Made by a program: the position numbers and the translations under genes. This document shows positions 1,241 through 64,000 of a DNA stretch of 64,000 nucleotides, piece after piece. The stretch comes from Amoebidium appalachense (lineage: Eukaryota > Protista > Ichthyosporea). The stretch covers positions 4,092,001-4,156,000 of the forward strand of contig CAVNZM010000014.1 of the NCBI GenBank assembly GCA_963693365.1, read 5' to 3'. Within the stretch, counting starts at the first letter, position 1. The number at the start of each line of letters is the position of its first letter. The notes beneath the pieces are model-generated. The model did not search any database, had not been told where the DNA came from, and saw only the letters and a program-made list of their open reading frames with translations.

Positions 1241-1380
1241 ACCTGTCATGTGCCCGTGGTCTGCAGCTGTGACGTCACCATGTGCTGTCAGGGCCCCAAC
1301 GTGGCCTGTGCCCATGCACACGTGCATGGCCCCGGCCAGTTGGGGCCAGCAGGCTGGGGCCCGTGGGACTTTAAAAGGCA
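1241..1380 (+). promoter_or_regulatory. Conserved upstream block of ML copy 1 (CRE TGACGTCA at 1270-1277, TATA-like TTTAAAAG near 1370); homologous block at about 7193-7330
   Basis: About 130 bp near-identical upstream of both copies (CRE at 7222-7229, CATAAAAG near 7320) while flanking sequence diverges. Confidence 0.5.
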
Positions 1381-1513
1381 AAGGGGAGGGAGAACCAATT
1401 CTCAAATACCCGCTCAGTTGTTACAATAGCATATTGCCACCCACTTAGTCACCAAATATTCACCTTAGCTAATTATAGACCCACCCATCCACCCACTCTA
1501 TTAATCCACGGCC

Positions 1514-3143
1514 ATGCACGTGTCTGCTGCCTCCCTGCTGGCCCTGGCTGCCGTGGCCACGGCACAGGCCCCCTGGTGGGTGCCTGCACGTGCATGTGCT
1601 TGCTGGGCATGGAGACAAACATCAAGTGCACACACACTGCACGCACTCTAGAACACTGTGTTCCCGTTATAGCACACTTCACACTGCATCATAGTCTCAT
1701 GCACTCAATAGAGAGAGACCATTGTAGCATACTTTGTTCTCACTGTGGCACGCTGTGTTGTCACTGTGGCACGCTGTGTTCTCACTGTGGCACACTGTGT
1801 TCCCAATGTGGCACGCTGTGTTCTCACGTGGCGTGCAGGTACACGACCAGCTGCCGGACCAGCGAGGACCACCTGCAGCTGCAGGCCATCACCCCCACAG
1901 CCCTCAGCCCCGTGCCCGGCCAGCCAATCAAAGTGGTGCGTGCCAAATTGCCGTGCCCAAACATCATTGCATGCCCTCCATGCATTGCTCAGACCCTATA
2001 TGAATAATCCCCCCCCCCCCCCCCCCCCCCTGCCCCCGCCCCCGCTACACACACACATCATGTAACTGCCCACAACCCCCCACCTGGCATGCCTTAATTG
2101 CTTTTGCATAGACTAGTATAGTGTGTGCAGCCAGTAGCCTTGCGGCCAATAGCCTTGCAGCCAATGGCCTTGTAGCCAATGGTCTTGCAGCCAGTAGCCT
2201 TGCGGCCAATAGCCTTGCGGCCAATAGCCTTGCGGCCAGTAGCCTTGCGGCCAGTAGCCTTGCAGCCAATAGCCTTGCAGCCAATAGCATTGCAGTCAAT
2301 AGCCTTGCAGCCAATAGCCTTGCAGCCAATAGCCTTGCAGCATGCTAACACCCACACAGAGGGTGCAGGGCACGGCCAGCAGCGCGCTGCCGCAGGTGTT
2401 CCTTGCGTACCGGCTGGCCCACAACGGCAGCCCCACGGCCGCAACGGGCCGCATCCCCCTGTGCGACGGCGCCCTCAGCGTGCCCTGCCCCATCCCCGCC
2501 GGCAGAGTCGATGCCAACCTCACAGGTGCACACACTGCCTGACCACACCACCCACCACCACACACCCTGCAGTGCACTAGGCATCCCTCCTGCCTTACCC
2601 ACCATCTCCCCCCCCCCCCCCCCTCCCCGCACACACACCCCATGCCCCCTGGCCCTCCCCTGTCTGCCCACGCCACTCCCCCTGACCCTCCCTTTCCCTA
2701 ACCCTCCCTTTCCCTGACCCCCCTCCCCCCCCCCCCCCTCCCCCCCCCCCCCCCCCCCCCCCCCCCAGTTGTTGTGCCATCGACGCTGCGGCTGACGATG
2801 CAGGACCTGACGCAGTTTGGGGTGCCGGGGGGCATTGCCAGCAACCTGCTGCCGGGGTTTGCCCTGCAGACCATCCCCCTCAGCCCCGGCGACAGGCTTA
2901 CAGGTGTGTGGGGGAGGAGGGGCCGGGGGGGGAGGGTGGGTGGAGGGGGGTAGGGGGGGCAGGGGGAGGGGGGCGGGGGTGTATGCAGGGATGGGCCCAA
3001 GTCTCAAGAGTGCTGGAAGGGATAAGGTTGATGTAGCAGGCCACAGTGAGTACTTTGCCGGGGGGGGGGGGAGGGGCAGGGGAGGAGGATGTATTTCGAT
3101 ACTAGGGCCACCGGTGGACTTTGGGATATGGTGAGGGGGGGAA

Positions 3144-3175
<32 letters not shown>

Positions 3176-4269
3176 CCAGGAGGATAGGGAACATGGGGTG
3201 TGGTCTTGGGATGTGCAGGGCGGCAGCTGATGGTGTGTGCGCAGGGGAAGTGCGTGTGCTGACGGACAGCGATGAGCCGGTGACCTGCCTCAGTGTGGAC
3301 CTGACCATGGCCAACGCCACAGGTGCACACAGTGAATGCACTGGCACAGGCACTGGCACTGGCACAGGCATGCACATGCACATGCATATGCAACACAAAG
3401 GCACAAGCATGCACACAGGCACAAGCATGCACGCAGGCACAGGCATGCCCACAGGCACATGCATGCACAGGCACACACATGCATGGATGTGGCCATGTAC
3501 ACCAAGACAGTGTGGTGGCACAATCGGGAAGAGAGACACACTTGCACGTAGTCTGCCAAGTAAAGCCCTCGTGCACACGGACACACACACGTGAAGCAGT
3601 AAAGACCCAGTGGCCCAAGTGGCATGCAGTGCAGTAGCACACAAACAACTCACACCCCCCCCAGATCCCAGCAGCACAGCACCCACGGCCCAAGTACCCG
3701 TACGGTTCCCTGTGGCAGGTATGCCTGCATGTGCATGTGTAACTATGCCTGCACTGTGTCGGTAAATGTGTGCGCTTGCAGATCATCATGATACATGCAC
3801 GTGTATGTATATGCCCACACGTGCATGCCCATGTGCCCTGCCGCAGGTATGCCGGCACGTGCATGTACATGCCTGCGCATGCATGGTGGATTGCTGACTG
3901 GGTGGCTTCACGCAGGGGCCAACACGGAGGGCAGCGCCAATGCAGCCGACAGCAGCGCCATGGCCGACCAGAGCAAGGTGCCTGCCTGCCGTGTGCATGC
4001 CCGCAAACTTGGACAGATGCAGGCACTGCCTGTTGCATTATCCCCATGTGCTGCCTGTTGCGCTGGAGTGTAGGATGCCCGTCTGTCACACACATCACCT
4101 TCAGTATCAATTTAACCCATTTGCCTTACCAACCTCCCGCCCCCTATATCCCACGCATGCACTGACACCAATTTACCTGCAGGCAGCCGCCTCGTCTGCA
4201 GCCCCCCGCGGCCTCAGCAGGGCCCTTATGGCCGGCGCCATGCTGCTGCCCTGCGCCCTGGCCCTCTGA
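1514..4269 (+). CDS. Secreted ML-domain (MD-2/NPC2/PG-PI transfer protein-like) lipid-binding protein with probable GPI-anchor signal, copy 1 (7 exons, about 228 aa)
   Basis: GT-AG exons 1514-1575, 1839-1935, 2360-2525, 2769-2903, 3245-3322, 3916-3977, 4183-4269 splice in frame. Signal peptide MHVSAASLLALAAVATAQA; ML-like motifs C...LQLQAITPTALSPVPGQPIKV, LCDGALSVPCPIPAG, DEPVTCLSVDL (4 Cys); Ser/Ala linker; hydrophobic tail ALMAGAMLLPCALAL-stop. Confidence 0.8.
1735..1826. repeat. 21-bp intronic minisatellite (CACTGTGGCACGCTGTGTTCT); longer version at about 7681-7815
   Basis: Tandem copies visible in intron 1 of both ML genes, with different copy numbers. Confidence 0.85.
2126..2340. repeat. 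15-bp intronic minisatellite (GCCAATAGCCTTGCA)n
   Basis: About 14 tandem copies in intron 2 of ML copy 1; source of the LQPIA/AANSL/CKAIG pseudo-ORFs. Confidence 0.9.
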
Positions 4270-4337
4270 GCCCCCAGGCCTATAAATAGTGTACATACCG
4301 GGCCAAGCCCTCTAAATAGCAACCGAATAAAACCACG

Positions 4338-5775: not shown

Positions 5776-7458
5776 TCTACGGTGCACTCTCAAAAAGCCC
5801 TTAAGAGCTATTATGACTTGATTTGGCTGATGTTTCACCTTCGGCCAGCCAGGGCATGTGGGTTTACCCCTGACGGTATCAATACCTCGACATTTGACGT
5901 TGAACAAAAACACACTGGCTCCTTGGTGGCTAGTTGGCCTAGTATCATAACGGCTACAAGCATACAGTGTGAACGTGAACTGTTATTCCGTGGAGTGTGT
6001 GGCATGCGTTCATCCACACTACCCAAGGTCTATCGGCAGCCACACCAACAGTAGCTGCTTTCTGCTTCCACTCAAGATTTTGCACACTGTGACACACTGG
6101 CACATACTTATGGCATCAGAACCGGTGCTTGTCTGATTAAAAAGGCAAAAGATATCTAAAATGCAAATAGAATCATAAAGTTGAATGACATGTGGAAGCG
6201 CAGAAATCCCCTCCCCCCCCCCCCCCCCTCCTCTCCCCCCAATCACGTCACTGGTGGAGGCCTTCAGATTTAAGCACCGTGATTGCATTGGTAATTCAGA
6301 GTGGCTGGTGGTGCACATCGGTTCTTTTTTTTAACCCACTGCTGGAACAAGATAGGGCTTCCATGAAACCCTTCCCCCCCTCCCCCCCCCCCCCCCTCCC
6401 CCCTTCCCCCCCCCTCCCCCCCCCCCCCCGGGCACACATACGCACCCGATAAAGCGGCTCCAGAAATGCCCCCAACTATCCCCTGCATATGGATAACCGA
6501 AAAAGGAAATCGAGAAACCACCCGTCACTACAGATAGAGCTTGGGTCGGATCGAACACCATTGTATGACATATGAGCCCATAACGAACAGCTAACCGCCC
6601 CCTCCTCCCAACCCCTCCCCCCTCTCCCCCTCCCACCACCACCACCCTCCACCCCCTTCCCCCGTGGCCCCTAGCTTGATGGCCAGCCTATAGGCGAGAT
6701 ACCAATGGCTAACTGATAGTATATCAAATTATTTGAACAAGGAGCGGGGCTGGTGCCGGAGTCACTGTAATCAAAAGAAAAAGAATAAGCTATAATAGTA
6801 ATTGTAATATTGGTGATTTGTGGCAGCAGTTATAAATTATAATTACTGGAAGTGGAGTGGTCGCAGTAGTTTTATTATTTGGTTTAGTAACGACGATGGT
6901 GGTAAGCAAACAGCAGCCCGAAAAATAGTTATAGCATCAATAGAATAACAAGAGGCGGGGGAATCACGACTCGAACACGGTAGATTTCTTAAGGTAGGTT
7001 CGCTCTCACGGTGTGGCCCTTCGTTTCCCCAATCTGTAACATTGGGAGGTGCTGAGGGGGTTAACCGGGCATGGCGTGTATGTATGTGCCGCTGTGATCC
7101 GACATTCCTATTAGCACCCCGAGGTCACTGATTGGCCAATGTACTGTCGGCAGGAAAATCAGTGGGCTGGATGCTTGTGTGAGTGCCCACGTACCTGTCA
7201 TGTGTCCGTGGTCTGCAGCTGTGACGTCACCATGTGCTGTCAGGGCCCCAACGTTGCCTGTGCCCATGCACGTGCATGGCCCCGGCCAGTTGGGGCCAGC
7301 AGGCTGGGGCCCGTGGGACCATAAAAGCAAGGGGCCCAAATACCCACCCAGTATTATTACTATCACATACCACCCAACCAGCCATTAGTACTAACACTGC
7401 CATCCAGCCATTAGCACTAGTACTGCCACTTACACACCCACTCTACTAATCCACGGCC

Positions 7459-8041
7459 ATGCACGTGTCTGCTGCCTCCCTGCTGGCCCTGGCTGCCGTG
7501 GCCACGGCACAGGCCCCCTGGTGGGTGCCTGCACGTGCATGTGCTTGCTGGGCATGGAGACAAACATCAAGTGCACACACACTGCACGCACTTTAGAACA
7601 CTGTGTTCCCGTTATAGCACACTGCACACTGCATCATAGTCTCATGCACTCCATAGAGAGAGACCATTGTAGCATACTTTGTTCTCACTGTGGCACGCTG
7701 TGTTGTCACTGTGGCACGCTGTGTTCTCACTGTGGCACACTGTGTTCCCAATGTGGCACGCTGTGTTCTCACTGTAGTACACTGTGTTCCCAATGTGGCA
7801 CACTGTGTTCTCACGTGGCGTGCAGGTACACGACCAGCTGCCGGACCAGCGAGGATCACCTGCAGCTGCAGGCCATCACCCCCACAGCCCTGAGCCCCGT
7901 GCCCGGCCAGCCAATCAAAGTGGTGCGTGCCAAATTGCCGTGCCCACCCATCACTGCATGCCCTCCTGCCTATCCTCTTGACATGTCTTATCTCCCCTTC
8001 CCTTCCCCACCTTCCTCGGGTTTGTCCCCCTTCCCTCCCTC

Positions 8042-8073
<32 letters not shown>

Positions 8074-8741
8074 ACCACCACCACCATGCCAATATCCTCG
8101 CAGCCAATATCCTTGCAGCCAAAAGCATTGCAGCCAGTAGCCTTGCAGCCAATAGCCTTGCAGCCAACGGCCTTGCAGCCAAAAGCGTTGAGCCAATAGC
8201 CTTGCAGCCAATAGCCTTGCAGCCAGTAGCCTTGCAGCCAATAGCCTTGCAGCCAATGGCTTTGCAGCCAAAAGCGTTGCAGCCAAAAGCGTTGCAGCCA
8301 ATAGCCTTGCAGCCAATAGCCTTGCAGCCAATAGCCTTGCAGCCAATAGCCTTGCAGCATGCTAACACCCAATCAGAGGGTGCAGGGCACGGCCAGCAGC
8401 GCGCTGCCGCAGGTGTTCCTTGCGTACCGGCTGGCCCACAACGGCAGCCCCACGGCCGCAACGGGCCGCATCCCCCTGTGCGACGGCGCCCTCAGCGTGC
8501 CCTGCCCCATCCCCGCCGGCAGAGTCGATGCCAACCTCACAGGTGCACACACTGCCTGACCACACCACCCACCACCACACACCCTGCAGTGCACTATGCA
8601 TCCCTCCTGCCTTACCCCCCCCCCCTCCCCCCTCCCCCCCGCCCTCGCGGCACACACACCCCATGCCCCCTGGCCCCCCCCTGTCTGCCCACGCCACTCC
8701 CCCTGACCCTCCCTTTCCCTAACCCTCCCTTTCCCTGACCC

Positions 8742-8781
<40 letters not shown>

Positions 8782-10253
8782 AGTTGTTGTGCCATCGACG
8801 CTGCGGCTGACGATGCAGGACCTGACGCAGTTTGGGGTGCCGGGGGGCATTGCCAGCAACCTGCTGCCGGGGTTTGCCCTGCAGACCATCCCCCTCAGCC
8901 CCGGCGACAGGCTCACAGGTGCGTGGGGGGAGAGGGGCCCAGGGGGAGGGAGGGTGGGTGCAGAAGGGGGGGGGGGGGGAGGGAAAGCGAGGGGTATGTT
9001 TTGGGGAAGAGCAGCAAAGGGGTGTGCTTTTGGGGATGTGCAGGGCGGCAGCTGACTGTGTGTGCGCAGGGGAGGTGCGTGTGCTGACGGACAGCGATGA
9101 GCCGGTGACCTGCCTCAGTGTGGACCTGACCATGGCCAACGCCACAGGTGCACACAGTGAATGCACAGGCACATGCACAGGCACATGCATGCACAGGCAT
9201 ATGCATATGCAACACACAGGCACAATCATGCACACAGGCACAAGCATGCACGCAGGCACAGGCACACACACAGGCACACACATGCACATAGGCACAAGCA
9301 TGCACACCAGGCACACGCATGCACACCAGGCACACGCATGCACACAGGCACACGCATGCACACAGGCACATGCATGCACACAGGCACACGCATGCACATG
9401 AACACACAGGCACATGCACGCACAGTGTGGCCATGAGGTAAACACAGTGTGGTGGCATATCCGGGCACACAGAGGGCACACACCTGTTGGCACGTGAAAC
9501 AGCTATGCCCACCGACACACACATAAAGCAGTAATCAATGAATCAAGGGGCATGCAGAAGGTGTTGCACACAAACACTCACACCACCCCCCAGATCCCAG
9601 CAGCCCGGCACCCACGACACAAGTTCCCGTGCGCTTCCCTGTGGCAGGTATGCCTGCACGTGCATGTGTATGCCTGCACGTGCATGTGTGTGCCTGCACG
9701 TGCATGTGTATGCCTGCACGTGCATGTGTGTGCCTGCACGTGCATGTACATGTACCCTGTGAGTTTGGACCTAACCTTGGGTTGCATTGTTTGTGGCTGA
9801 CTGGGTTACTTCACGCAGGGGCCAACACGGAGGGCAGCGCCAATGCAGCCGACAGCAGCGCCATGACCAACCAGAACAAGGTGCCTGCCTGCTGTGTGCA
9901 TGCCCACACACTGTTGGACAGATGCAGACCCACCCTATTGCATGGTCCCATCTTGCGCTTGTTCGGATGGAATATGCAGACACCCCCACCTTTCCTTGAA
10001 CCTTTTGGCCATCCCTCGCCCCCCCCCCCCCCCCCCCCCCCCCCCCCCTACACCCCCTTCCCTGTCTCCCCGGCCCCTGCCCCCCTCCCCCCTCCCCCCT
10101 CCCCCCCCCCCCCAAAAAAAAAACAAAAAAAACACAACATATGCACTGACTCATGTTTCCTTGCAGGCAGCCGCCTCGTCTGCAGCCCCCCACGGCCTCA
10201 GCAGGGCCCTTGTGGCCGGCGCCATGCTGCTGCCCTGCGCCCTGGCCCTCTGA
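7459..10253 (+). CDS. ML-domain lipid-binding protein with probable GPI-anchor signal, copy 2 (tandem paralog)
   Basis: Same 7-exon structure as 1514-4269. ML exons differ only at synonymous sites; amino-acid changes are confined to linker and tail (ADQSK>TNQNK, PRG>PHG, LMAG>LVAG). Confidence 0.8.
8088..8357. repeat. 15-bp intronic minisatellite (GCCAATAGCCTTGCA)n, paralogous array
   Basis: About 18 copies in intron 2 of ML copy 2, with variant units (GCCAAAAGCGTTGCA). Confidence 0.9.
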
Positions 10254-11035
10254 GTCCCCCAGGCCTTTAAATAGTGTACATACCGGGCCAAGCCCCATAA
10301 ATAGCAACGTTGAATAAATCCACGCAGGGCCCTGGTGGTCTTCCCCCCCCCCACCCCCCCCCCAAACACCTTTATAATGTACGTCATTATGGTGGCCGTC
10401 CGGATCAAGATTGCACTCCACCACTGTACATCTTAGCATCCATACACACACACACAAACAATACACAAATACAAACACACACACACGCACACACATACAC
10501 TCTCAAACCGTACCGTAACACACAATCACACCTACCCACACACACACACTCTTTGTCTATCACACATCCACCACCACACAAACACCCATACACACACACA
10601 AACAGTTAGTAGACAAACACAAGCCGGAACACACACACACACACACACACACACGGACACACACGGACACACACACACACACATACACACAGGCATTGTG
10701 GCTTACCCCTCTCTCTCACGGAAACACAAATTGACAAACACAACTACACAAATCAACCATACCAACATACATATGACGTTACTACACACCGTCATCCCCC
10801 ATCCCCCCCCCCTCCCCCCATCCCCCCCCCCCCATCCCCCTCCCCCCTCCCTCTCCCCTGGCGACAAATTCCCACACCACAAAACACACACACGTCATAC
10901 ACCATAGAGAGACACACCGTGCAGGATGATAAACGTACCTCCCCGTTCAAAATGCTAACACTCTCCGAAACATCACAGCAATAAAGAAAGACCACATCCG
11001 TTCCACACAAAATGACAAAAGTACATGCCATGTAA

Positions 11036-16754: not shown

Positions 16755-17639
16755 TAAAACCATTTCAATTCAAGTCATGAAGCGAACTATTGTAGGCCGA
16801 TTAGTTTGCTTAGCTGTTTGGTGCGTGGTCGAGCCTGAGTAAGGTGTCCTGCTGTTGCTGTTACAGGATGGAAGAACACTGCTTGTGGCGCGTCAGATGA
16901 CTTATCGTGGGGTACTTAGTTATATGCAGCCATATGCATATGCTGCAGCGCTAAAGTTTGCCTAGCTAAGTCTGATTGTATGGCTATGTGTCTTGTGCCA
17001 AGCAAGCTGAACAACGACTTAATGTGTAGCAATCTGTGAATGAGTGGTCGGGCACAAGACGAAGTACAGTATAAAGTACACGTTATCTGCAGCTGCAGCT
17101 GCGTGGGTGGCCCGTGCCACCGGTCAAACGGTGGTGAATTACGGTGGTGTCGTGAACGGATTCAAACCACCGCATACCAAGCATGCCACTGTGCATACCA
17201 CGCCGGTTGCGTGTACCTAACGGAATGTGACGGAATACTGGTACACATAAGGGGTTGAAGGCATCTTTCATATAGAGCAGTAAGCATTCGTAGAGATAAC
17301 AGGAACAGTGCAGCTCAATAATGAGCACATTAATTGACGAGAAGGGGACAAATCCTAATATACTGGAAAGCGGTGATAACGGCAAGGGTTACACGAACAT
17401 TATTGAACCCAGTTCACCGGCGGTCCGGGTCCACTCCGGGAAGGGATACGGGATCGGCGATTTTGAGTGGTCCCCGATTTCTTTCTGGCGCCGCCTTTTT
17501 TCCCCCTGATTACGTAACGCGTTGCTACGCACCCACGCCGTACAACGAGTTTTGTGTTCGCACGTTAACGCAGAGGGCGCACAACCCGAAAGAATTTTTT
17601 TCATGAAAAGAAACTACTTTGAATACATGCACTTTTACC

Positions 17640-18344
17640 CTGGGTGTGCAGGGCTTGCTCCCAGCGCTCGGCATTAGTGCCGAAAAAGCCACAGATGTTA
17701 CTGCAGAGTTGCAACGTGGGGTAGTTGCTTTTGACGGGATGGTGCAGGTCCACAAGTCCTTTTCAGTTTTCGCTGACACAGTAGCCAAACAGCAAATAGA
17801 TGACAAAAAAGTCACAGACGACACATATGCAGCTATTGCAAATCACTTTATGTCCAAAGTTAATACGTATAGGCTAGCAGGGGTCCAGCCACACTATGTG
17901 TTTGATGGGCGCAGATCGAAAGAGGGAAAACTAGTTGATAACGACCGTGCAGAAAAGGTGGTCAAAGCCCGCCAAGAAATAGCCACAAAAAGAGAGAAAC
18001 AGGAGGAGGTAACTAAAAACAAATGGAGAAGCGCTGCAGAGTTAGATAACAGAGTTTTACATGCAATCATCCTTAGACTGAAAGATGAGAATGTCGATTA
18101 CACAGTAGCTCCATACGAAGCAGACCCCCAGCTTGCCTATATGGCACGTACCGGTTTGGCACACACTGTTGTCACTGAGGATGCCGACCTTCTTCTGTAT
18201 AACATCCCGCGGGTTGTATACAAACTGCGCATTGCGGATGCGGCGGTCATCCCTGGGACCGCTAATGCGGTGCGCATTCCCAAACTGTACGGAGTGATTG
18301 TAACCCCCGCCGATGTTTTTACCAGAAGCACAAAGTACAACATA

Positions 18345-18345
<1 letters not shown>
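17640..18345 (+). CDS. EXO1/XPG (Rad2/FEN1, PIN-fold) 5' nuclease domain inside the transposon; start codon reads CTG; 3' part unresolved
   Basis: (L)GVQGLLPAL..VAFDG..PHYVFDGR..VAPYEADPQLAYMARTG..VVTEDADLLLY matches the EXO1-like N and I motifs with the acidic catalytic residues intact. No H3TH GCDY motif found downstream, where repeat-filled intron-like sequence follows. Confidence 0.85.
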
Positions 18346-18418
<73 letters not shown>

Positions 18419-18638
18419 AGTAATCTTCTGACCGATCTAGTGAACCTATAATGAATGAATGAAGACCGTGTGTCAAATCTGAGAGCCATGTACCAGACCC
18501 TGGTGCCTGCATATGTTTCCTACCCCCCCCCCCCCCCCCCCCCCCCTCCCCCCGGTCCCTCCTCCCCCCTTGGTGTTTGCATACGTGCCTACCTGCCCCC
18601 CCCCCCCCCCCCCTCCCCCCCCCCCCCCCCCAACACGT

Positions 18639-18684
<46 letters not shown>

Positions 18685-18928
18685 CGTGCGTGCGTGCGTG
18701 TGTGCAAATGCGTGCGTGCGTGCGTGCGTGCGTGCTTCCGTGTGTGCGTGGTTGTGTGTGTGTGTGGGGAAGGGGGGGGGGGGGGGGGGGGGGGGGGGGG
18801 AGAACGACTCAAGGTTGTACTTGGCACACAAATACATAATAATTTCAATTATTATTATTATTTTCCTATACAGGAAAAGTGGAGCCCTACTGGCCGAATA
18901 CATACATGCAAGCATTCATTCATATTTT

Positions 18929-18980
<52 letters not shown>

Positions 18981-19060
18981 AAAAAAAGACAAAAAAAAAA
19001 AAAAAAAAAAAAAAAAGCAGAGAAGGGGGCTTTAGGGAGAGGCAATCGAAAACGAAAATT

Positions 19061-20987
19061 CTACACCATGCTTTTGGTGTGCCCGGGCCCCACCATATCC
19101 TTATATAGTGGCTCTTGCATGTTACACAAGAAAGCCACAGCCTTAGCTACCATCCAATGGGTGCCTACAATCGACATCTGCACCTGATTGCTAAACAGCC
19201 GATAATTTTTCGTGCGCCCAAAAGCCCTCTCCACATGCACGCGCACACTAGACAGTCTTTGGCTATATATGGTGTCTTCAGCGTTTAGCTGCCCATGCTC
19301 AACAAACGACGGTAATAGCAAGGAAGCACCCTTCTCCATGATTAGCCCGTGCACTCTAAACCCTTTATCAGCTGCTATTTCATCCCCCTCTTCTATCTGA
19401 TCTACAAATTCACGCTTGCATACACCTGTGAGATCCGGGTCTTTGAACCCTCCCACATGTGCATCGGACACCTGTCTGAGTTTCATATCCGTTGTGATGC
19501 CCCCGAAGTACTTGAGAGTATAATTGCTTTTGTACTCTGAGTAGAAACATCGTTTCAGAAGGAGGTTTGTCGGCACCTGTACAAACACCTCGGTGCAATC
19601 AATGATCCACCGTACATCGTCCCATTGCCCAGTGTAGCAACCGGCTTTAAACTTCGAAAGTTGCTCTCTGGTGGGGGCTTTGACAGGCTTTTTCGTATAG
19701 AAAAACCTGTGCTAACGCCAGTGCACCAAGAAAATGGCGGAATATACGCGAAAGATTCGGTTCTGACACATCCACCAGCCGACTCAATAGTTGGAAGGAT
19801 GTGCCGTGGCGGAGGCGAAAAAGTGTAAAAAGACATCCATCATGCAATATTATTTCCTTTCCTGTTTTGGTTTTAAAATCATTCATGTTTATAGTTGATT
19901 GGCCAATAAAAGCAACAATCCCCAGCACTCCCATGAGAGCATCAAAACTATCCAACCCCGTGTATGTTTTCACCACATCATCTCTAGCCTTCCCTTCCTC
20001 TTCCGCCACTATGTCCTCCATGCATATTCTTTTCTGGTTTTGTAGTAATTCCTCCCTCGCTTGATCAAGCGCTTGTTCGAGCTCCTTCTTCTCCAATCTT
20101 TGTTTCTTCTCATTTTCCTCCAATTGCTTCGTAGCTATCTCAAGTTCGATTTGCATTTTCTCCGCCTGCTCCTTATAGAAAGCTCTTGAACGTTCCAGGA
20201 CATTCACATAATCCTCTACATCCATCCCTTCCTCACCTGCCTTCGACTCTAGATAGTCAAATGTCCTTTCACGCACATGTTCCCTCCTCCTTTCCCTCGT
20301 TCACTGTCCGCTGCTTCTTCACTGCTCGTCTCCCCCCGCTCCCTCGCTCGTTTCCGTGTTTGCTCAATATCTGAGGCATCCATTCCTACAGCTTGCATAT
20401 GACTATTGGCCCTTTCCTCCCTCAATAGCTGTACCTTCTCTCTGTACATCGGGTCTAGTTCCATTCGGATGGGACATGCATTCTTTGTTAAATTTCAGTT
20501 TTCCATTCTTAGCAGTAATATCATCATCGGTGAAATGTGCCTCGCATACAACCAGTTGCTTAAGGATAGCCAGTGGCGAGGGGACTTCCACCTTCGGTTG
20601 CCCCCGTTTCCTCTTTGGTTGTGGTTCTTGTGCCGACTGCTCAGCTGGCACAGCCGAGTCATTGGCATTTTCGGATTGTGTGTCAGCTGTGTGTGTCTCA
20701 GTAGTGGTTGTGTCTGTATTTACGTCTGTCCCATCCGAGGCCTTTGGCCTTGTGTCTGTGTGTGTGTCTGGGTCGGGGGGTGCTTGCTTTGTGTGTTCTG
20801 CTATTTGTTTCCGCTCATACTTTGTTTGCTCCTGCCTGCCTATAGCATTTAACCAAGCATGCCTCCTAGCCAATACATTTGGTTTGTATCCATATGGAAC
20901 AGTAAAAAGCTTTATCTTCCTGGTAGGATCTTTGGGAGAGACTGTTTCTTCGTCATTTTTGCAGTAGTTAGCCGCGCAAGTTGGCAT
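19061..20987 (-). pseudogene. THAP + coiled-coil + HTH + DDE_Tnp_4-type transposase, split over about 5 reading-frame segments
   Basis: MPTCAANYC..W..VCEAHF (THAP C2CH); LFRLRHGTSFQLLSRLVDVSEPNLSRIF (HTH); VRWIIDCTEVFVQVP, FYSEYKSNYTLK, IAADKGF, VRVHVERAFGRTKNYRLF (Harbinger/ISL2EU DDE). About 4 frameshifts (near 20485, 20300, 19700, 19625): decay or assembly indels. Confidence 0.85.
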
Positions 20988-21914
20988 TGTGAGTGCCTAA
21001 CATATATAGTTAGAAAACAACCCGCCTTCATGAAAAATGTGCAGCGCAGTTTTGTCCGGACACGTGTGTGGCATGCCGTGTGTACATGGTATAGCTCGGC
21101 CACACGATCTTAGGTGCCCAATAGGCAGATCAAGCCCACTCAATCCAGATAGATATCGATCTGAGCGGCGCCAGAAAGTATTCGAGCCGCGCGATCCCGT
21201 ATCCCTTAATAACTTGGTGGAATAAAAATCATCGCACGCCATTGGACTACACCTGTCTGCATTTTATCACTGGAACGTCGCCGGATGAATCATGATCTTT
21301 CGAAAATGCAGCATTGCAAGCGAATAGGTAAATATCTTGATATCCTTTTTTACCATACAGCGTCAGCCATAAGCAAGAGCCTGCCTTAATTAATATTCCT
21401 AGCTGTGAGCATGTTCATAATGACCACTGGCCTGTTCACTCAAATGCCCACGTACCAGACTGAGCTCGGACATGCCGATGTCATCCGCGCCACTGGTGCG
21501 GCACGCGCTGCATTAGATAAACCAATCAATGGCTGCCATAAGACCCTAAAAATGGCAGGCGAAAGATACGGTCGATTGGCTCTACATATTTTTGGCGCGA
21601 AGTGCAGCATCGTTGTCCGTGGCACCGTCCAGGGAACTGCGTCACAGTCACCGACTCACAGTCACGGAGTCACGGTGAATTCAAGAAGCACTTGTCACGC
21701 TGCAGCTGGGGGGGATAAGCACACAGTACACTTGGTACCGAGAGAAGGGCCAGTGCAAAGACGTCACGGCAACAGAAAACGCACAACAACCTAACTAAAC
21801 TGCAGCACAGCAGCGCGCAGCGAGAGAAAAATATTGTCAGCACAAGCCCCTTACTCACCACGCACGGCTGCAGCAGCTCTAGCTAAACACGCGGTAGCAG
21901 CGGTTGCCAGAGAG

Positions 21915-62354: not shown

Positions 62355-64000
62355 TTAAGCCTCCACCGTCACCTCACGGGCACCGGACAGCACCAGCACG
62401 TTCTCGTGGTGCACGAAGGTGTCGAGGGTCAGGTCGTCCTGAACCGTGGGTTCCCCGACCCCGGCGGAGAACTTTTCCGTGTTCAGGTGCAGCAGAATGG
62501 GGGTGGCGTCGGAGCTGGTGTCGAGCCCAGAGTACAGGTCACGGTCCCTCTCGAGGTCCAGGGCGATCATGAACTGCTTGTCGGGCCAGGACGTGGAGTT
62601 GTACATGCAATCGGCCGTGACGTCACCCAAGAAGTAGAGGGCCTTAGCCAGCTCGGCCCATGCCTCGGCGCAGTTGTTCTTCGACACACGAATTTCGTCG
62701 AGGGGCTTCTGGTAGGGGCCTATCTTGATCTGGTAGCTCGTTATGTTGCTGCGTTCCGACCTAAACGACTCGTAGCCGGCCTGGGCCCACGTGTTGCCGT
62801 TACGAACGAGGGAGAGCAGGGACTTGACGTTTCTCCCCCGGAACGAAATGTGCAGGTCGGCAGGGCTGCCCCCCTTGACGTAGCTCTGGAAGTGGGTGAA
62901 CGTGCTGTAGGGAATGTACACGTTCTTCTCCATCAAGGCCTTTTCGAAGCCGGCCGTGTAGACGGCGTTCCACTCGATGATTTCGCAGTGGAGGACGGGG
63001 TTGATGATCTCGTAGGCGACGTCCTTGAGCCAATTCTCGTTCTCGGTGGGCACGTACAACACTTGGTTTGCCTCACCCAACGACAGCTCGATCTGCACCT
63101 CCCCCATGTACGACAGCGGGAGGTACCGGCCGGACCGCATGAGGCCGAGCTTGAGCTGGTGAATGTAGGTGAAACCGTCGGTGGCGTCGATTTGGGCCTG
63201 GATGTTGGCCTGGTGGGGAGGCCACTTGGCGGCGCGGGCGGTGTAGTCGAGGAAGCGGTCGGCAGGAATGCCGTCCTTGCCCGGCAGCTTGTCGACATCG
63301 GGGGCAAACAGGGCCTCGTTGGGCAAGGGGTCCGTCCCCCTCGCCTTCTCGATGCCAAAGAGCTTTTTGAGGGGGTCGGGGTTGAAGGACGAGTACTGGG
63401 CGGCCGTGGTGGTGTTCCACTTGTCCGCATACTCCCAGTCGGCGTCCTGCGGGCTGTACGTCCCGTGCATGCGGCCGGCGGGGCTGTTGCCGTAGTCGGC
63501 CGACGACAGGAACCGTTCCAGGTTGATCATCAGGTGGTTGTAGCCTGAAATGTCCTCGACGGTGGTGCCGTTGATGGACACACGGGCCCGTTCAAACGGT
63601 GCGGCCGAGGAGCAGAGGTGGCCCCCCATCATGGCCATCCCCTCCAGGTTGCGGACCTTGAGGGGGAAAATGTCGGTTGCCGCCGCGTTGTTGTTGAGGG
63701 TGTTGTTGGCCAACGTCTCGCTCTGGGGCACGGTGGTGCCCTCGTAGTCCCTTATGGTGGTGTCGATCTCGAGGGGGTGGGCCAGCTGACCGGGGAGGGG
63801 GAACCTGCGCAGCCTCTCCACCTTCACGCCCACGTACTCGGGGGCGTTGGGCACGTTGGCCTTGAACTGGAACGTCATGTAGGAGTTGAGACAGTCCAGG
63901 AAGCCCACGGCCGGCAGGGAGAACCGAATCACGCGCTGCCCCTTTGAGCTGTACGTCGAGCCGGTCACCGGGTAGGTCTTGACCGTCGACCGGCGGTTGA
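62355..64000 (-). CDS. Double jelly-roll major capsid protein of Polinton/PLV/adintovirus type (5' end outside window, over 545 aa)
   Basis: Uninterrupted frame from the window edge: NRRSTVKTYPVTGSTYSSKGQRVIRFSLPAVGFLDCLNSYMTFQF..PFERARVSINGTTVEDISGYNHL..RYLPLSYMGEVQIELSL..YEIINPVLHCEII..YQIKIG..FMIALDLE..SGLDT..TFVHHENVLVL. Motif order matches PLV/Maverick MCPs as I recall them. Confidence 0.8.
   Translation of the reverse strand, partial: NRRSTVKTYPVTGSTYSSKGQRVIRFSLPAVGFLDCLNSYMTFQFKANVPNAPEYVGVKVERLRRFPLPGQLAHPLEIDTTIRDYEGTTVPQSETLANNTLNNNAAATDIFPLKVRNLEGMAMMGGHLCSSAAPFERARVSINGTTVEDISGYNHLMINLERFLSSADYGNSPAGRMHGTYSPQDADWEYADKWNTTTAAQYSSFNPDPLKKLFGIEKARGTDPLPNEALFAPDVDKLPGKDGIPADRFLDYTARAAKWPPHQANIQAQIDATDGFTYIHQLKLGLMRSGRYLPLSYMGEVQIELSLGEANQVLYVPTENENWLKDVAYEIINPVLHCEIIEWNAVYTAGFEKALMEKNVYIPYSTFTHFQSYVKGGSPADLHISFRGRNVKSLLSLVRNGNTWAQAGYESFRSERSNITSYQIKIGPYQKPLDEIRVSKNNCAEAWAELAKALYFLGDVTADCMYNSTSWPDKQFMIALDLERDRDLYSGLDTSSDATPILLHLNTEKFSAGVGEPTVQDDLTLDTFVHHENVLVLSGAREVTVEA

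Follow-up and report, generated by a model that had tools for sequence, protein, structure and literature searches.

A 64-kb window of the genome of the ichthyosporean Amoebidium appalachense (64,000 nt of contig CAVNZM010000014.1, assembly GCA_963693365.1, positions 4,092,001 to 4,156,000 of the forward strand) contains one copy of a multi-copy, mobile DNA transposon of the ISL2EU type, whose second gene codes for a nuclease of the EXO1 subfamily. The other copies of the family, the related elements and the nuclease itself support the view that this gene belongs to the element, being neither a chance neighbour nor a fresh capture. On the minus strand, Pfam matches to THAP (E 1.4e-7), HTH_Tnp_4 (2.7e-8) and DDE_Tnp_4 (5.1e-30) mark the transposase, with the domains and strand given by a first-pass annotation of this DNA, although the gene is not intact but spread over three frames by three indels. 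On the plus strand, the second open reading frame (ORF) matches XPG_I (3.6e-13), with a weak XPG_N match below the cut-off (5.3e-4), and runs unbroken and without any intron over 234 codons. This ORF is thus XPG-family, and a profile of YqaJ-type partners, built from 13 Pfam-confirmed YqaJ-bearing ORFs, had no match anywhere in the window.

Other copies were compared in contigs of four sequencing runs (X1, X2, X4 and X13) over positions 17150-18340 and 19020-21480; the repeat-rich 18341-19019, and therefore the 3' end of the nuclease and the length of an intact copy, lie outside this comparison. X13 is guessed to be an RNA run, and the contigs carry no information on expression. The left part of the element is present in 20 of the 24 listed runs. 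In X4, whose contigs match both window flanks without any difference, the nuclease was covered at a depth of 979, the right arm at 959 and the DDE core at 449, with 34-41 in the flanks; the corresponding values in X2 were 120, 183, 15 and 11. The nuclease reached about 11-29 times the flank depth in these two DNA runs. Since summed contig depth is no copy number, we take from these values no more than that there are tens of copies and that the nuclease is roughly as frequent as the element ends, which makes it a regular part of the family. Copies with three left flanks and four right flanks, the window's own among them, were observed, and one X2 contig joins the left and right flanks of the window without the element (record positions 872 and 874). 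The copies differ by about 1% or less, which is too little for a ratio of non-synonymous to synonymous substitution rates (dN/dS). With copies about 99% alike and polymorphic sites, the family looks recently mobile.

The perfect 16-bp terminal inverted repeats (TIRs) noted at first pass (17441-17456 and 21192-21207) were confirmed, together with the subterminal motifs: an inverted 14-mer just inside the TIRs and, some 160 nt in from either end and directly before the start codons of the two genes, an inverted 11-mer. A 14-nt core of the TIR is found at these two places only in the window, where 0.19 occurrences are expected with up to two mismatches. Nevertheless, the limits of 17441 and 21207 proposed for the element fall short of its true ends, which across copies read AT-TAAGGG...CCCTTA-AT. 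On the right, the X1, X2 and X13 copies are alike up to 21210 and diverge beyond; on the left, those of X1 and X13 have ...GT-AT-TAAGGG, and among short X4 contigs the deepest carries three letters ahead of 17441. These first three letters are missing from the left end of the window copy, and that left junction, like the CTG start described below, was seen in no contig. All intact ends have AT directly before TAAGGG or directly after CCCTTA; both kinds were seen on separate copies, never together on one copy. The simplest reading of these sequences would be a 17-bp TIR with an AT target-site duplication (TSD), which is the ISL2EU rule in the available part of PMC4482050. Likewise, nine complete YqaJ-type loci that we inspected have AT-bounded ends. 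The empty site reads GGG-AT-AT-AAC and is either a pre-insertion target or a footprint retaining both AT copies. The filled sites, but not this empty site with its ATAT, would also be explained by a TTAA duplication and GGG ends.

The window copy is dead, having three transposase frameshifts, CTG in place of ATG, a damaged left end and a truncated nuclease; at these points the family is open in other copies, wherever they are visible. Compared with the window, the contigs of X1, X4 and X13 have 10 nt less at 19676, 1 nt less at 20490 and 1 nt more at 20290, and therefore a single transposase frame of about 638 codons. The protein P0168 reads through the two start-proximal junctions and has a break of its own further on. 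Assembly error is an unlikely source of the frameshifts, as a single-copy X2 contig has the same two window indels that it spans. Deletion derivatives lose the DDE core through internal deletions with short microhomology (19229>20319, 19218>20291 and 19199>20806). In the commonest X4 derivative, 19229>20319, the HTH-DDE core is deleted in frame, which would leave 278 codons, the exact length of P0167, a THAP-plus-C-terminus protein. A THAP-bearing derivative of 278 residues might be compared with the KP repressor of P elements.

Codon 17640, CTG in the window, is ATG in contigs of all four runs, and the X1, X2 and X4 contigs show no indel in the compared part of the nuclease. The window gene breaks off at 18341, where it runs into simple-repeat DNA. 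An intron at 18342 was rejected as the cause of this break, since the junction has no GT donor and a DNA contig, from X4, ends exactly at 18341; the X1 and X2 contigs continue 424 and 217 nt past 18340, respectively. Past the break, the transcript-derived protein P0002 goes on to include the H3TH motif, its GCDY and GIG and the equivalent of D225, and this H3TH/GCDY part is found nowhere in the window. Both genes are present as ORFs in a transcriptome-style assembly, and near-identical proteins with transcript-assembly names are labelled in EukProt as those of the ichthyosporean Amoebidium parasiticum.

In alignment numbering, the window contains the equivalents of human EXO1 D30, H36, D78, R92, E150, D152, D171 and D173, and P0002 contains that of D225. 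All seven acidic metal ligands are therefore kept across the window copy and P0002. The acidic motifs that the first-pass annotation took to be intact are indeed present in the window up to the D173-equivalent, whereas the H3TH motif and the last catalytic aspartate (D225) have been cut off. Similarly, the features of the EXO1 subfamily (XPG-N, XPG-I, H3TH, the seven ligands, and greater proximity to EXO1 than to FEN1 or XPG) are found in the window piece and P0002 together, not in the window copy alone. Among relatives of solved structure, human EXO1 is the best match (E 6.5e-16), ahead of the best FEN1 (2.9e-10). Searched with Foldseek, the predicted structure (predicted local distance difference test, pLDDT, 85) gave template modelling (TM) scores of 0.73-0.75 to EXO1, at most 0.69 to FEN1 and at most 0.56 to XPG/Rad2. 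In a quick tree of 58 rows, comprising no eukaryotic FEN1, XPG or GEN1, the nuclease has a long branch within the EXO1 clade and is separate from archaeal FEN1 and from three proteins of giant-virus type. Scans of viral contigs with transposase or nuclease queries returned only three distant giant-virus-type XPG genes, and at about 20% identity these provide no close viral source. Among 1.84 billion representatives, only its own two pieces exceed about 39% identity over most of the query, and the ESM Atlas returned DDE_Tnp_4 and XPG clusters only. No SWIM motif was seen in P0002, a possibly incomplete protein.

The nearest neighbour of the nuclease in the tree is, weakly, an EXO1-like protein of Branchiostoma with a HIRAN domain (Shimodaira-Hasegawa-like approximate likelihood ratio test, SH-aLRT, 89, unstarred). 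This 'exonuclease 1-like' protein (P0158 / P0006) has its HIRAN domain at the C-terminus, is present at two loci and has the motifs EADPQ and EDADLL in common with the nuclease. The Branchiostoma EXO1-HIRAN protein may also be element-borne.

Identity to 53 EXO1 hits averages 31%, whereas those hits average 44% among themselves. The G+C content at third codon positions (GC3) is 0.47 in the nuclease and 0.43-0.52 in the transposase pieces, compared with 0.64-0.87 in five host exons, three of which have only 28-59 codons. Both ORFs are, therefore, as unlike the GC3-rich host genes as had been claimed. The A-rich codon usage also claimed for them holds in the nuclease for lysine (AAA:AAG 15:3) but not for glutamate (GAA:GAG 4:8). 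Judged from the 31% identity, the seven ligands kept and the transposase-like GC3, the nuclease appears to be a long-term resident of the element and not a fresh capture, which agrees with the first-pass annotation.

The history of this pairing was approached through 83 related loci, namely the best 80 of 90 stretches confirmed in a metagenome scan and three GTDB loci, many of which repeat the same families. The YqaJ-partner profile matches 47 of the 83, and 31 of the 37 with at least 2 kb downstream, nearly always on the opposite strand. The nuclease of the window likewise lies on the opposite strand, tail to tail with the transposase, as does YqaJ in most of these 47 loci. The DDE core is up to 39-41% identical to YqaJ-partnered elements. 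In a careful tree of 23 rows it groups, on a long branch, with the ISL2EU-type set against four bacterial insertion sequences (100/100), the set having been gathered with the window sequence's own motifs and the DDE trees comprising no Harbinger, Spy, Nuwa or Pangu rows. Its place, both in this tree and in a quick one of 43 rows, is among the rows with a YqaJ partner, although placement as their sister is not rejected (approximately unbiased, AU, test p 0.37). Therefore, the proposal that an unrelated exonuclease displaced YqaJ stands as regards the EXO1-type gene in the YqaJ slot, and replacement is its likely history, though unproven. A search for longer transposase relatives and a plasmid search with the window DDE gave no matches.

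Several of the related loci have features of their own. In L034, a degenerate EXO1-like H3TH fragment (6761-6856) lies about 800 nt outside a YqaJ-type ISL2EU element. L085 and L086, on contigs filed as prokaryotic metagenome-assembled genomes, have transposases of the ISL2EU type, each convergent with a YqaJ-type partner that bears a PHD domain; Pfam reports YqaJ in L085 and, in L086, no more than a weak match to alkaline exonuclease. These contigs are likely eukaryotic contamination. In L057 and L058, long inverted repeats enclose a YqaJ gene that lies upstream of the ISL2EU-type transposase and points away from it, where the usual arrangement is tail to tail.

What such a nuclease would do can be framed from what is known of the family. 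The THAP and HTH domains would bind the subterminal motifs, and the DDE core would nick the 3' ends and insert them at an AT dinucleotide. The EXO1-type nuclease is then predicted to trim either the 5' strand that is not transferred or the 5' flap that strand transfer leaves behind, and the deleted and frameshifted copies would be moved in trans. A precedent exists in Tn7, where a second nuclease removes the non-transferred strand. YqaJ/lambda exonuclease and EXO1 have unrelated folds and both work 5'->3'. A 5'-processing role is suggested because they share polarity but not fold, and because the catalytic set has been kept at 31% identity; we give removal of the 5' strand or flap about an even chance. 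The occupation of one slot by two unrelated folds of the same polarity points to 5'-end processing as the selected function, and a second nuclease is likely required for transposition of this kind. In its strongest form, which we put forward tentatively and would not expect to hold in full, an undescribed protist branch of ISL2EU-type elements made EXO1 the obligatory second nuclease of its transpososome, for the strand that DDE leaves uncut, and a eukaryotic two-nuclease form of cut-and-paste was reached twice, with YqaJ and with EXO1.

A dedicated nuclease of the element could instead act on the donor-site break, resecting its 5' strands; a sister copy would then serve as template for repair of the gap, and copy number would rise. 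In cells, EXO1 works mainly in long-range resection, and the three microhomology deletions and the filler at 18342-19019 resemble aborted gap repair; such derivatives, however, arise in any cut-and-paste family through host enzymes. Moreover, the X2 site, if it is a footprint, kept both AT copies without loss, and it may be a pre-insertion site. We regard this role as rather unlikely. The nuclease could also be an old captured EXO1 that travels as a passenger, or helps only indirectly, for example by dampening the DNA-damage response. Derivatives would then retain it simply since their breaks fall in the transposase, its long branch can equally reflect relaxed selection, and one transcript form is frameshifted and the K85 position altered. 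Yet drift would not spare the acidic ligands, R92 and the H3TH motif at about 31% identity. Although the host is rich in introns, the gene has none over 234 codons; it occupies the YqaJ slot, and a mirrored motif precedes its ATG and that of the transposase. We consider this explanation improbable.

By far the least credible alternative is that the nuclease is the host's own EXO1, lying beside the transposon or caught in it by chance. A separate host EXO1 could not be shown, but the gene is inside the TIRs, at many times the flank depth, absent from the orthologous X2 empty site and present with several flanks. The single-copy host gene that the first-pass annotation had named as its refuting case is thus largely ruled out, and an EXO1-subfamily gene resident in the element remains the interpretation that we follow.

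Several observations weigh against a dedicated role of the nuclease in transposition. The position of K85, a conserved lysine in EXO1, is occupied by glycine, with a lysine one residue on. An insertion of 1 nt divides the nuclease derived from transcripts into P0001 and P0002; it recurs in the X13 contig, X13 and the transcript being possibly not independent. A complete intact copy was never seen as one piece, and none of 68 EXO1-like hits scanned against Pfam had a fused transposase domain. An EXO1 profile matched 0 of the 83 related loci (stretches of at least 40 residues), so no second family with the pairing was found among them. The function of YqaJ in ISL2EU is itself given as unknown in the passages available from PMC4482050, and relatives such as Spy and Harbinger transpose without such a nuclease, according to the portion of PMC4122938 consulted.

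The features of the window copy are collected in the following table.

Features of the ISL2EU-type element (positions within the 64-kb window)
Feature	Position	Strand	Remarks
Left TIR, damaged in the window copy	17441..17456	+	outermost T and the AT target duplication of other copies missing
Left subterminal inverted 14-mer	17481..17494	+	partner at 21165-21178
11-mer upstream of start codon	17597..17607	+	mirrored at 21027-21037
EXO1-subfamily 5' nuclease gene, N-terminal two thirds	17640..18341	+	CTG start here, ATG elsewhere; H3TH and D225 lost
Simple-repeat-rich filler replacing the nuclease 3' end	18342..19019		362 of 678 nt simple repeat
ISL2EU-type transposase gene (THAP, coiled coil, HTH_Tnp_4, DDE_Tnp_4)	19061..20987	-	three frameshifting indels; ~638 codons in majority form
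DDE catalytic core	19064..19669	-	D-D-E triad in place (IIDCTE, ADKGF, HVERAFG)
Right subterminal inverted 14-mer	21165..21178	-	
Right TIR, 17 bp	21192..21208	-	copies of runs X1, X2 and X13 alike up to 21210
Probable AT target-site duplication at the right end	21209..21210	+	from copy flanks and the ISL2EU TSD in PMC4482050

The host genes on either side of the element code for a GATA factor and MOZART1. Elsewhere in the window, an uninterrupted ORF of at least 547 residues (62358-63998, minus strand, open at the window end, GC3 about 0.87) had no Pfam, PDB or viral-contig match; our impression is of a capsid-type protein. A duplicated block (about 1250-4300 and 7200-10270, some 6 kb apart) contains 15-nt and 21-nt tandem units.

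The role of the second gene of ISL2EU is an open question in the available part of PMC4482050. As the chemistry of EXO1 is well known, point mutants make this question directly testable here. The host of the family is a relative of animals that is kept in culture; with it, ISL2EU-type elements reach beyond the range given in PMC4482050, which comprises animals only. A search of published papers, with supplements, Repbase and Dfam outside it, found no description of an ISL2EU-type transposase paired with EXO1. For ISL2EU, the portions consulted of PMC9179366, PMC4122938 and PMC12730594 either name YqaJ alone or name no partner, 'XPG' being absent from those of PMC9179366 and PMC12730594, and that of the Amoebidium genome paper (PMC11244446) mentions neither Harbinger nor a nuclease. 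The suggestion of an undescribed PHIS lineage is therefore upheld as far as these papers go, but the transposase has the characters of ISL2EU and YqaJ is lacking, so that we file the element as a variant of ISL2EU.

PIF/Harbinger, Nuwa, Pangu and Spy elements resemble it in their DDE_Tnp_4-type core and, in most, in having two genes. In contrast, the available parts of PMC4482050 and PMC4122938 give them TWA, CWG, TNA or ANT duplications or none, no THAP, and a partner that is Myb/SANT, unidentified or absent. The partner here is a nuclease and the ends give no 3-bp duplication as in PIF/Harbinger. Spy elements have no duplication, an AAA|TTT target and a single ORF without THAP, whereas here there are a THAP domain and a second gene, and the empty site is without AAATTT. 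The Kolobok lineages D, E, P and H show comparable accessory swaps, of unrelated nucleases (DEDDh, lambda-like, His-Me) or a helicase, with no XPG-family partner mentioned in the available part of PMC9587614. Kolobok belongs, however, to another transposase superfamily. The first-pass annotation mentions XPG-like domains in AcademX. The AcademX passage of PMC10045372 says only 'a nuclease', thought to affect TSD length; like the present element it is a DNA transposon with an accessory nuclease, but of another superfamily and with 3-4 bp TSDs. Cellular EXO1 (human core, PDB 3qea and 5v0c) shares the fold (TM 0.74), the seven acidic ligands, H36, R92 and the H3TH motif, and differs in sequence (about 26-36% identity) and at the K85 position; in addition, the present nuclease is multi-copy and mobile, with no long regulatory tail seen. 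The closest system is ISL2EU itself (PHIS; PMC4482050, PMC4122938), with the same THAP-HTH-DDE transposase, convergent 5'->3'-type nuclease gene, short TIRs, AT-flanked ends and length of about 4 kb. Its TIRs usually start with GG, whereas under the AT reading they start here with TAAGGG (the fetched YqaJ-type loci are also mostly without a GG start), and its A|AT|T target preference is not seen in the few flanks here. The 25 families in the consulted part of PMC4482050 all come from animals, while the present host is an ichthyosporean, and their second gene is SWIM-YqaJ, where the Amoebidium element carries an EXO1/XPG-family nuclease.

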